Source: Escherichia coli (GTDB lineage: Bacteria; Pseudomonadota; Gammaproteobacteria; Enterobacterales; Enterobacteriaceae). From it: a stretch of DNA of 64,000 nucleotides. The notes below the pieces were generated by a model. It had not been told where the DNA came from. It saw nothing but the letters and a program-made list of their open reading frames with translations, and ran no database searches. Both the position numbers and the translations under genes were made by a program. Shown piece after piece: positions 48,572 through 49,957 of this stretch (positions are counted from its first letter, which is position 1; every line of letters starts with the position of its first letter). The stretch is taken from assembly GCF_050320075.1 (NCBI RefSeq), contig NZ_CP190019.1; one strand, given 5' to 3'.

Positions 48572-48585
48572 AGTCTATCCCGGCA

Positions 48586-48963
48586 TTGCCAGTCGGGGAT
48601 ATTAAAAAGAGTATAGGTTTTTATTGCGATAAACTAGGTTTCACTTTGGTTCACCATGAAGATGGATTCGCAGTTCTAATGTGTAATGAGGTTCGGATTC
48701 ATCTATGGGAGGCAAGTGATGAAGGCTGGCGCTCTCGTAGTAATGATTCACCGGTTTGTACAGGTGCGGAGTCGTTTATTGCTGGTACTGCTAGTTGCCG
48801 CATTGAAGTAGAGGGAATTGATGAATTATATCAACATATTAAGCCTTTGGGCATTTTGCACCCCAATACATCATTAAAAGATCAGTGGTGGGATGAACGA
48901 GACTTTGCAGTAATTGATCCCGACAACAATTTGATTAGCTTTTTTCAACAAATAAAAAGCTAA
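48586..48963 (+). CDS. VOC (glyoxalase/bleomycin-resistance-like) family protein, 125 aa
   Basis: Small AT-rich ORF with TTG start; identity not verified. Confidence 0.4.
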   Translation: MPVGDIKKSIGFYCDKLGFTLVHHEDGFAVLMCNEVRIHLWEASDEGWRSRSNDSPVCTGAESFIAGTASCRIEVEGIDELYQHIKPLGILHPNTSLKDQWWDERDFAVIDPDNNLISFFQQIKS

Positions 48964-49282
48964 AATCTATTATTAATCTGTTCAGCAATCGGGCGCGATT
49001 GCTGAATAAAAGATACGAGAGACCTCTCTTGTATCTTTTTTATTTTGAGTGGTTTTGTCCGTTACACTAGAAAACCGAAAGACAATAAAAATTTTATTCT
49101 TGCTGAGTCTGGCTTTCGGTAAGCTAGACAAAACGGACAAAATAAAAATCTAAATATGCTTGAACAACTTGTAACTTAAATTCATAACTGTATTTTGCCA
49201 TAAAAAATGACCTCCCATAAGTTAGATTTTTGGTCTAACTTATGGGGGTCAGTTCATTCTACACTTGGGCTGCATGTTTTGA

Positions 49283-49675
49283 TTAATTATCTAATATCTC
49301 CGGATCTCCTGTAAAGGAATATAAAACTGCCTGCATGTTTTTCAAATAAAATACGGTGAATTTCCCATCATCAGCGCTATACCAATCTCTCAAAGGCGGA
49401 TTTGCTTCAAGCATTGCTTCCCTTGCTTCCACGGTATCATCAATTACGGCTTCGCCGGTGAGCCGAATCCATTTTCCTTTTGCCATACCTGAGACTTCCA
49501 CCTTTGAATTTGCCAATAACTGCTGATAAACTTTTTTCTGATTGGTTGTACCAAGATAGACCTTGCCATTCCTCTCCATGGCTGCATTAAACGGTCTGAC
49601 CCTTGGCTGGTCTCCTTCAACGGTTGCAAAATAAAAAGTTTTTGCTTCATTTAAAAAATCAACAACTTGACTCAT
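49283..49675 (-). CDS. Pyridoxamine 5'-phosphate oxidase-like FMN-binding family protein, 130 aa
   Basis: AT-rich ORF; family assignment by general resemblance only. Confidence 0.4.
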   Translation of the reverse strand: MSQVVDFLNEAKTFYFATVEGDQPRVRPFNAAMERNGKVYLGTTNQKKVYQQLLANSKVEVSGMAKGKWIRLTGEAVIDDTVEAREAMLEANPPLRDWYSADDGKFTVFYLKNMQAVLYSFTGDPEILDN

Positions 49676-49957
49676 CCTTTTTTACCTCCATAAATAAATT
49701 TTTCTTTACTTTTCTTTGACCTAAATTCCACGTGCATTTTTTATTAGCTTAAAAGAACACTATTTCACGAAGAATTTAAACTGATACTCCCACATTGTAA
49801 CATTATTTACCACCACCTTTCAATCTTTTTCAATAAATTATTGATTGCAACTTTTGAGTAAAGATACTTATTAAACCCTGCAAGTTATCCACAGAGCAAC
49901 ACTCGATTTTCAAGATGATATCTTTATTATACCAGACATTTTTCATACACTTCCTTG

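Follow-up and report, generated by a model that had tools for sequence, protein, structure and literature searches.

In the window, the 64,000-nucleotide stretch of an Escherichia coli contig that was analyzed (NZ_CP190019.1, assembly GCF_050320075.1), an AT-rich block (48573-49957) lies between two copies of the insertion sequence (IS) IS26. This block is very probably what is left, after trimming by IS26, of an ISEnca1 transposition unit of 2,802 bp that resides in Tn2, namely the half distal to the IS. As read from its sequence, the block carries a probably silent, 5'-truncated copy of bleO (ΔbleO) and a probably expressed flavoprotein gene of the PNPOx family. The structure of the block is already known and common, being a standard piece of the pOLA52-type oqxAB neighborhood.

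The left edge of the block can be placed precisely. The last base of Tn3 tnpA is 48572, and identity to pUB110 DNA extends from 48572/3 to 49149. In windows of 200 bp, the GC content is 0.51-0.56 up to ~48570, 0.30-0.45 over 48600-49950 and 0.49-0.55 inside IS26 (exact values: 0.368 for 48573-49957, 0.562 for the Tn3 fragment at 48436-48572, 0.524 for IS26 and 0.495 for the whole window). An initial annotation, made from the letters of the DNA, had reported an abrupt change in composition at ~48572 and a fusion to an internal fragment of Tn3 tnpA. The position is correct to one base, the GC values show the break, with a sharp fall in GC, and the minus-strand translation of the adjoining DNA does match TnpA. 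The fragment at 48436-48572 (-) encodes an internal TnpA piece (...ATTLTRLISEVREKATLRLWNKLALIPSAEQRSQLEMLLG), which is cut by IS26 on its left and by the ISEnca1 unit on its right. The junction in the window reads ...GGGGAGAATAATA|GTCTATCC (left flank also given as ...GAGAATAATA|GTCT).

The missing half is found in a relative. The Salmonella Bredeney plasmid pF18S044-1 (L019) has IS26, ΔtnpA, bleO and the PNPOx gene as in the window, with IS26 inside ISEnca1, and here the remainder of the element follows. Its right junction reads ...GAATCTCAG|TAATACGATGTTGC; beyond the left inverted repeat (IRL) of ISEnca1 (...GACGTAGAATCTCAG), Tn3 tnpA takes up again, as TAATACGATGTTGCATAAGCC, at the point where it stops in the window. 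Thus, the tnpA sequence to the right of ISEnca1 in relatives is contiguous with the window fragment. At least 4,200 plasmids contain the rebuilt empty site, GGGGAGAATAATACGATG, at 100% identity over 72 nt, and there it is annotated "Tn3 family transposase". The 2,802-bp unit, which runs from 48573 to the IRL and consists of ΔbleO, the PNPOx gene and ISEnca1, is flanked by a 5-bp duplication, TAATA, one copy being on the left in the window and the other to the right of the IRL in pF18S044-1. A 5-bp duplication is the signature of IS1380-family transposition. The element lies at one end of the unit, reads toward the cargo and has a genuine right inverted repeat (IRR); 238 bp of it are left in the window. 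An IRL terminus identical to that of pF18S044-1 adjoins unrelated DNA in four other contigs (L020 and L026-L028). From these junctions, the left edge of the AT-rich segment is best described as the surrogate end of an ISEnca1 transposition unit and not as a random deletion.

The initial annotation had offered another explanation, in which an IS26-bounded Gram-positive module had lost its resistance gene, so that the junction would be a scar of deletion or illegitimate recombination. IS26 copies do lie on both sides, and there is no aadD, the gene that comes before bleO in pUB110-type DNA. This explanation is nevertheless hardly tenable: 5 bp of the Tn3 target are perfectly duplicated at the junction, an IS1380-family IRL lies at the far end, a recognizable resistance gene (bleO) is present, and the two flanking IS26 copies are in inverted orientation, the same arrangement having been described before (PMC5501952). 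On the sequence evidence, the TAATA duplication together with the intact empty site is enough to refute it. Because the left edge is a unit boundary inside bleO, aadD would never have been imported and bleO would have been cut at capture, so that the supposed deletion of the cargo does not apply; the part lost later is the body of ISEnca1, as comparison with the related units in pF18S044-1 and in an E. coli plasmid (L034) shows.

The features of the block and its borders are as follows (coordinates, strand, feature and basis).

47617..48435 (+): IS26 copy A, 819 bp, the left boundary of the block (inverted repeat positions)
48436..48572 (-): internal Tn2/Tn3 tnpA fragment, 137 bp (translation matches TnpA)
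48568..48572 (no strand): left copy of the 5-bp target-site duplication TAATA (insertion of the ISEnca1 unit into tnpA)
48573..49149 (+): pUB110-type DNA, 577 bp, 5'-truncated bleO and 186 bp downstream
48574..48963 (+): ΔbleO, codons 6-134 and stop (NF000027)
49008..49039 (+): terminator-like hairpin 3' of bleO, pUB110-derived (hairpin scan)
49148..49201 (-): first 54 bp of an IS3-family OrfA-like gene (identity with ten contigs)
49214..49246 (-): terminator-like hairpin 3' of the PNPOx gene (hairpin scan)
49283..49675 (-): PNPOx-family gene, a flavin mononucleotide (FMN)-binding split-barrel protein of 130 aa (PF01243, structure 2IG6, AlphaFold model (AF2), Foldseek)
49676..49719 (-): 44-bp spacer with Shine-Dalgarno (SD) site GGAGG, between the ISEnca1 IRR and the PNPOx ATG (sequence)
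49720..49957 (-): ΔISEnca1, last 238 bp, IRR end CCTAAATTCCACGTGC (match to the ISEnca1 transposase end in L016)
49794..49823 (-): outward promoter-like site TTGAAA-18-TACAAT, TG-extended (promoter scan)
49950..49957 (no strand): IS26 8-bp target site CTTCCTTG (duplicated around IS26 in pF18S044-1)
49958..50777 (-): IS26 copy B, 820 bp, starting GGCACTGTTGCAAA, which truncates ISEnca1

Two open reading frames (ORFs) had initially been noted in the block, a VOC-family ORF with a TTG start and a PNPOx-like ORF, and its right end had been placed at IS26 copy B. Both ORFs are present (PF00903 and PF01243), and copy B starts at 49958. The VOC ORF (48586..48963 (+), TTG start, 125 aa, PF00903 (Glyoxalase/VOC)) is, by profile and by identity, bleO, the bleomycin-binding protein of pUB110. 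It is recognized by the NCBIfam exception model NF000027 (297.9 bits vs a cut-off of 275, E 9e-90); the alignment of the ORF from its TTG covers profile positions 10-134 of 134, or 6-134 when counted from the junction. AMRFinder reports bleO at 100% identity in related records. The statement that no resistance gene is recognizable therefore did not hold, since bleO passes the NF000027 cut-off, AMRFinder calls it at full identity, and published maps of the block list blmS and nimC (PMC6387526, PMC5501952).

The DNA around bleO is that of a known module. Positions 48573-49149 are 100% identical to 4999-5576 of a Staphylococcus warneri plasmid (L003), which has the gene order rep-aadD1-bleO-mobV between two IS6-family copies and thus an integrated pUB110-type module. 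The comparison with Firmicutes plasmids and resistance databases, which the initial annotation had recommended, gave this module and bleO, and the Gram-positive origin that it had assumed is borne out by the S. warneri match, by the ISEnca1 end at 49720-49957 and by the relatives of the PNPOx protein in Clostridia. The pUB110 aadD-bleO module, known from Staphylococcus and Bacillus and also from staphylococcal elements between IS257/IS431, is represented in the window by 577 bp of 100% identity, which cover bleO codons 6-134 and the downstream region. Unlike that module, the window has no rep, aadD or mob, lacks the bleO promoter, SD site and starts, and has the fragment carried by ISEnca1.

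The 5' ends of bleO differ abruptly (native GTGAGAATGTTACAG|TCTATCC vs window AATAATAG|TCTATCC; with longer context, native ...AAAGGGGATTTTATGCGTGAGAATGTTACAG|TCTATCCC and window ...GGGGAGAATAATAG|TCTATCCC). ΔbleO is devoid of its promoter, of its native AAAGGGG SD site and of the first five codons, including both native starts (GTG/ATG). In place of the two starts and 14 nt, the window has Tn3 sequence with an in-frame TAG at its end (48571-73). Hence the gene is not a complete coding sequence (CDS) with a native start codon. The first canonical start is the TTG at 48586, which has no SD site. The Prokaryotic Genome Annotation Pipeline (PGAP) has a CDS of 128 aa with a non-canonical ATC start at 48577, and a GGGGAG is located 11 nt 5' of this ATC. 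The scan of the + strand found no promoter-like site 5' of bleO. A hybrid promoter provided by IS26 was considered and rejected: a TTGCAA in the inverted repeat has no acceptable -10 box, and the scan was empty. Because promoter, SD site and start codons are lost, ΔbleO, although a recognized resistance gene, is most likely a silent passenger.

It is conceivable that ΔbleO is instead functional and was selected as cargo, with a BleO lacking 5-9 N-terminal residues, translated from read-through transcripts with an ATC or TTG start, protecting against bleomycin-family compounds. The ORF is open for 129 codons and shows zero amino-acid variation in 22/22 copies covering bleO; PGAP and AMRFinder both call a bleomycin-binding protein, and the GGGGAG precedes the ATC at a distance of 11 nt. 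We consider this unlikely: native promoter, SD site and both native starts are gone, the upstream scan revealed no promoter-like site, and the first canonical start is without an SD site. A young neutral passenger would be equally invariant, and a unit boundary within the gene implies that the capture was accidental.

The right part of the block is the end of ISEnca1. Positions 49720-49957 match the annotated end of the ISEnca1 transposase in L016; the transposase is on the PNPOx strand (also in L019) and reads toward the PNPOx gene. ISEnca1 has been named at this place in the block (PMC5645526), and the IRR CCTAAATTCCACGT at 49720 agrees with the published ISEnca1 IRR ACGTGGAATTTAGG (PMC9535334). 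The promoter scan revealed TTGAAA-18-TACAAT with an extended TG at 49823..49794 (-), facing the PNPOx gene. The measured outward promoter of ISEcp1 has the same hexamers at the same spacing (PMC9330008); by this sequence match, a predicted outward promoter of an IS1380-family unit is present. Among the loci, ΔISEnca1 variants (49781-49817) cluster at this promoter: 49796 is in the -10 box, 49817 is beside the -35 box, and about six loci lack a T at 49803/4, which would leave a spacer of 17 nt instead of 18. With 80-90% identity, the ISEnca1 end also resembles an element that thousands of enterobacterial plasmids carry; this element is presumably ISEcp1 and probably explains the flood of matches in this range.

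The arrangement closely resembles ISEcp1-blaCTX-M-type units (IS1380; "transposable modules" for ISPme1). In both, the IS precedes the captured gene and shares its orientation, with an identical outward promoter (TTGAAA-18-TACAAT) and a short spacer between IS and gene (44 bp). Both have a 5-bp target duplication and nested, successively longer captures of adjacent DNA; a far end that is variable and at most weakly similar to an inverted repeat may be a further common trait. In contrast to ISEcp1 units, the IS is ISEnca1, which is of Gram-positive origin; the cargo is an uncharacterized flavoprotein gene with an accidental bleO fragment and no proven resistance gene; and the IS body has been deleted by IS26 in the window, so that the unit is no longer self-mobile.

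A second, older boundary is indicated inside the block. At 49148/50, identity passes from pUB110 to a stretch common to ten contigs, nine metagenomic (L020, L021, L023, L024, L036-L040) and one a Lactococcus plasmid (L018). Four were inspected at the seam, and all four run past it into a gene for a 189-aa HTH_Tnp_1 protein (IS3-family OrfA-like). In the metagenomic copies, this gene lies 3' of the PNPOx gene; the window retains its first 54 bp. The seam at 49149/50, CTAAATATGC (TCTAAAT...), resembles the IRR, CCTAAATTCC (CCTAAAT...), with 6/14 matches, of which six are contiguous and terminal. This likeness suggests that the seam is the boundary of an earlier, shorter ISEnca1 unit, which would have landed first in pUB110. 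In one of these copies (L020, an ENA metagenome contig, 828 to ~3600), ISEnca1, the PNPOx gene and the IS3-like orfA lie between comEA-like and comEC-like genes of a host genome with ~30% GC; the target-site duplication is ambiguous (TATTT candidates).

The data are thus compatible with a history in four steps. As the sequences indicate, ISEnca1 would first have come to lie 44 bp upstream of a small PNPOx gene in a low-GC Firmicute. In a second step, which we infer, ISEnca1, the PNPOx gene and 54 bp of the IS3-like orfA may have landed 3' of bleO in a pUB110-type plasmid. A second read-through transposition, for which the junctions speak directly, would have carried along 577 bp of pUB110, ending inside bleO codon 5, and the unit would have inserted into the Tn2/Tn3 tnpA of an enterobacterial plasmid, duplicating TAATA. 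Finally, as seen in the relative pF18S044-1, IS26 would have inserted into ISEnca1 with an 8-bp duplication, CTTCCTTG, and IS26-mediated events would have removed the remainder of ISEnca1 and joined the block to oqxAB (Tn6010), giving the pOLA52-type arrangement. The progenitor is predicted to have an intact bleO 5' end together with the 49149/50 seam, and an IRL followed by AAAAT and then TGGCAAGGG.

Several points weigh against this account. The surrogate end at 48573 resembles the ISEnca1 IRR/IRL weakly (4-5/20 matches). The right half of the unit and the second TAATA copy lie outside the window and are taken from the relatives L019 and L034. The progenitor junction was not found in PLSDB, GTDB representative genomes or JGI metagenomes, the pUB110 insertion being a reconstructed step: the predicted right junction (IRL, 3-9 nt, then TGGCAAGGGTTTAAAGG) has 0 matches in metagenome contigs, the pUB110/PNPOx seam has 0 matches in genome contigs and in metagenome contigs, and PLSDB has no Staphylococcus record with the PNPOx part. 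PGAP annotates bleO as an intact CDS of 128 aa, and read-through into bleO from IS26 copy A might occur. The silence of bleO is deduced from sequence alone, and expression and function of the PNPOx gene are putative.

ISEnca1 has formed at least one other such unit. A PNPOx protein (P0021) with 67% identity is encoded directly 3' of ISEnca1 on E. coli plasmid contigs (L026-L029, e.g. L028 3281-6330; one full-length PLSDB record, so that it is rare). Besides ISEnca1 and the PNPOx orthologue, this sister unit of 3,050 bp contains a piece of an amino-acid permease gene from a Firmicute and 405 bp of E. coli leuO. It has 5-bp duplications at two sites (TAGGA in L026 and TCTCA in L027), and its far end has 9/14 matches to the ISEnca1 inverted repeat. 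The two IS copies are 98.9% identical, the two PNPOx genes have 73.9% nucleotide identity, and the IS-gene junctions are 13 bp apart. These differences in junction and divergence imply that ISEnca1 inserted independently upstream of two orthologues. Judged from these units, ISEnca1 is active as a unit-former in E. coli.

Further placements were encountered. A second ISEnca1 IRR end lies directly 5' of a gene for an MBL-fold metallo-hydrolase (WP_065801617.1; L016 3295-4231, L034 9194-10137), a pairing found on E. coli plasmids, one of which carries tet(X); this gene may be further cargo captured by ISEnca1. In the Enterococcus faecalis plasmid p4 (L002, NZ_MH830362; 7950-9500), a unit of the window type (48527-49999) is present between two IS1216 copies in circularly permuted form. 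The opening lies within bleO, at AAAAAGAG (window 48604-48611), a sequence found duplicated at the two junctions with IS1216. The unit retains 42 bp of IS26, which meet 46 bp of Tn3 tnpA at a CTTA microhomology; this junction is present in a single PLSDB record. The p4 copy looks like a circular piece of the Gram-negative arrangement that was captured back into a Gram-positive plasmid.

The PNPOx gene is the remaining cargo. Its product belongs to the split-barrel superfamily (PNPOx_N, PF01243, 38.6 bits vs a threshold of 28.1) and has an AlphaFold model with a predicted local distance difference test (pLDDT) score of 96.2. The nearest structure is 2IG6 (Clostridium acetobutylicum CA_C2569; sequence E 3e-36, Foldseek TM 0.92-0.94), and the further Foldseek matches are generic PNPOx-like, general-stress and heme-binding split-barrel proteins. 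The closest named chromosomal relatives are from Clostridia (Konateibacter, Clostridium perfringens), the nearest chromosomal homologues being 68-75% identical. In three of four independent chromosomal loci (68-73% identity), a divergent regulator of the HxlR family is encoded ~120 bp upstream, and a flavodoxin gene is upstream in the fourth. These neighbors fit a small regulated redox or detoxification flavoprotein. Because the SD site and the ISEcp1-type promoter are kept, the gene is probably expressed, yielding a putative FMN-dependent redox protein. A look-up of the exact protein found it only in IS26 or ISEnca1 contexts, and variants of 92-98% are also ISEnca1-linked wherever the contig reaches upstream of the gene.

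In records and papers, this gene goes by the names nimC or nimA (PMC5501952, PMC6387526), which raises the question of whether it belongs to the Nim-type genes for 5-nitroimidazole resistance. Among solved structures, the closest one, 2IG6, bears the title "NimC/NimA family protein", and the split-barrel fold superfamily is common to Nim proteins. Such an assignment is very unlikely. 2IG6 is a structural-genomics entry in which no function was demonstrated, no NCBIfam Nim model matched at E<=0.01, a profile of 34 sequences searched against the PDB at E<=10 reaches uncharacterized PNPOx-like and general-stress proteins but no authentic Nim, the top 50 Foldseek matches do not include an authentic Nim protein either, and no phenotype is reported in the papers found. 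On the basis of the NCBIfam, PDB profile and Foldseek searches, Nim membership was rejected. The "nimC" label is unsupported, and orf63, nimC and nimA are annotation names in the literature, in which no functional test of the gene was found.

Some parallels to the Nim reductases (Bacteroides NimA-K, Deinococcus NimA) are nevertheless to be noted. The PNPOx-like split-barrel fold is common to both, and nim genes are typically activated by an upstream IS (IS1168, IS1169; table in PMC9330008), as the PNPOx gene would be by ISEnca1. Unlike the Nim reductases, the PNPOx protein has no detectable profile relationship to them and does not match a Nim hidden Markov model. The Nim proteins are also longer, with ~165 aa vs 130 aa for the protein in the window.

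The PNPOx gene is unexpectedly polymorphic, and almost all differences between copies of the unit lie within it. Eight Gram-negative plasmids with the same Tn2 junction were picked for <100% DNA identity over 49141-49950. They show 24 differences in the 393-bp PNPOx ORF, 0 in the 577 bp of bleO/pUB110 DNA, 3 in intergenic DNA and 2 in ΔISEnca1. The 36 loci compared have 13 nucleotide alleles, and 13/13 encode distinct proteins; the metagenomic alleles among them were chosen as protein variants, and copies are not independent. A minimum count gives 25 non-synonymous vs 3 synonymous changes (expected synonymous fraction 0.22-0.28, P = 0.025-0.11). Recurrent sites lie beside family-invariant motifs (14 F/Y/C, 30 G/D/N, 31 A/V/L, 42 G/S/A, 94 P/L/F, 97 D/E/K/V, 98 M/L/W and 121 F/L). 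Changes form stepwise series (G30>D30>N30, M98>L98>W98, P94>L>F, A31>V>L), for which one-step codon intermediates are seen (GGT>GAT>AAT, ATG>TTG>TGG, CCT>CTT>TTT). The family consensus, Y14/G30/M98, is the allele of pF18S044-1, structurally the least degraded copy, while the window allele, F14/N30/W98, is the most derived and the most frequent. Common full-length PNPOx alleles occur in 645, 285, 76, 50 and 35 contigs, whereas the commonest full-length BleO variant occurs in 18 contigs among the members listed, vs at least 1,000 for the main form. Cluster sizes (359+427 PNPOx vs 453 BleO sequences) were not discriminating alone, while the frequency of full-length variants was. An origin of the codon changes by a diversity-generating retroelement was considered and rejected, as the changes are not adenine-specific.

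One explanation, which has a little under an even chance of being right, is that the PNPOx gene is a neutral hitch-hiker and that its polymorphism reflects ascertainment, recombination, relaxed constraint or the attenuation of a costly IS-driven gene. The metagenomic alleles were picked for differing proteins, the non-synonymous excess taken alone is borderline at the P values given above, and attenuation of a costly gene would also produce it. There are four-gamete violations among the alleles, which indicate recombination, truncated forms exist (P0014, P0025, P0042, P0058), and some changes strike residues conserved in the family (G30, A31, K47, N92). Neutrality does not easily account for the eight plasmids, which were chosen by DNA identity only and yet have all 24 coding differences in the PNPOx ORF and none in the bleO/pUB110 part, nor for 13/13 alleles encoding distinct proteins. 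Nor does it explain stepwise series with common intermediates, conservative exchanges among hydrophobic or aromatic residues that recur at a few sites instead of scattered knock-outs, a most derived allele that is also the commonest, and an orthologue captured independently by ISEnca1.

It is tempting to speculate that the flavoprotein is an IS-activated, positively selected determinant, a yet-unrecognized resistance or tolerance gene beside oqxAB. We put this forward tentatively, as a possibility that is more doubtful than likely. The initial annotation had suggested, as its alternative to a deleted cargo, an unappreciated role for one of the small ORFs, and for the PNPOx ORF some circumstantial evidence lies in this direction. 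As an example, the protein could act as a reductase on a livestock agent of the nitro, N-oxide or quinone type and thereby detoxify it. Supporting points are that ISEnca1 captured two orthologues independently (74% nucleotide identity, different insertion points), both of which are present in enterobacterial plasmids, that the promoter is kept in the remnant, that HxlR-type regulators adjoin the chromosomal homologues, and that the polymorphism is almost exclusively amino-acid-changing, affects recurrent sites beside invariant motifs in a stepwise manner, and that the most derived allele is the commonest.

In pF18S044-1, CTTCCTTG is found on both sides of IS26, and it is also found to the left of copy B in the window; as it flanks both sides, IS26 in pF18S044-1 is a simple insertion, at the very point where copy B cuts the window. 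The E. coli plasmid L034 has the unit without IS26 at that site, so that the IS26 insertion is later than the unit. With tnp of copy A on the + strand and that of copy B on the - strand, the pair is inverted, and the segment 48573-49957 is thus not flanked by directly oriented copies, as a translocatable unit or pseudo-compound transposon would be. Copies B and C are identical and in direct orientation and bracket oqxA (ORF 51034..52209; region 49958-56803), which is consistent with Tn6010 as in pOLA52, copy B being its left IS26. The near-identical plasmid pEC21-2 continues with oqxB, an Rrf2 regulator and then a class 1 integron (dfrA12-aadA2-qacEΔ1-sul1).

Copy A has five differences from copy B, including GG>AA and a 1-bp deletion. 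Copies A (47617-48435) and D (61437-62255) are mutually identical and differ from B and C at these five positions. The GG>AA change yields ...KRIINATLG instead of ...KRIIGATLG, which we take to be the G184N-type IS26 variant. The 1-bp deletion splits tnp26 into ORFs of 176 aa and 106 aa (in copy A, 47662..48192 and 48063..48383); either this frameshift marks a genuine defective variant, or it stems from a systematic error of assembly in repeats. The Tn3 tnpA pieces flanking copy A, 46314-47616 and 48436-48572, are not contiguous, ~400 codons being missing between ...LKRLSKMISDLLPP and ...SQLEMLLG. This gap ties copy A to a deletion and not to a simple insertion.

The block is widespread. A 1,401-bp query is 100% identical in pOLA52 (NC_010378), and the identity between window and pOLA52 is 100% over 48300-50100. 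At least 402 PLSDB plasmids cover >=80% of the query, the block is present in 148 of 5,426 complete E. coli genomes, and a look-up of the exact PNPOx protein leads to 4,234 indexed blocks of a public collection. "ΔTn2, IS26, blmS, orf63, ΔISEnca1" has been described upstream of Tn6010, identical in pOLA52, pHXY0908, pHK0653 and pHNSHP45-2 (PMC5645526, PMC6288184, PMC7823714), and other papers list the same block as "nimC ... blmS" (PMC6387526, PMC5501952, PMC10871549). The order IS26, ΔtnpA, bleO, PNPOx, IS26, oqxAB of the pOLA52 oqxAB region (also pHNSHP45-2, pHK0653, pHNYJC8 and pC629) is that of the window, with no difference of substance in the segment, except that IS26 copy A of the window is the frameshifted variant. 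This match to a well-characterized region is an outcome that the initial annotation had itself named as speaking against its view. The papers list the components; in the literature searched, no explanation of the Tn2::bleO junction as an ISEnca1 unit boundary was found.

The structure itself matters little, being catalogued, and bleO is flagged by routine antimicrobial resistance tools. The "bleO" calls in hundreds of enterobacterial plasmids, however, would refer to a beheaded, promoter-less and accidentally carried fragment, and should not be taken as bleomycin resistance, nor as the trace of a lost larger Gram-positive module. The block documents an ISEcp1-like element of Gram-positive origin that builds nested transposition units and works in E. 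coli. The allele series of the PNPOx gene is reminiscent of evolving resistance enzymes. If the gene should indeed have a selectable function, a widespread determinant co-located with oqxAB, in ~3% of complete E. coli genomes, would have been overlooked.

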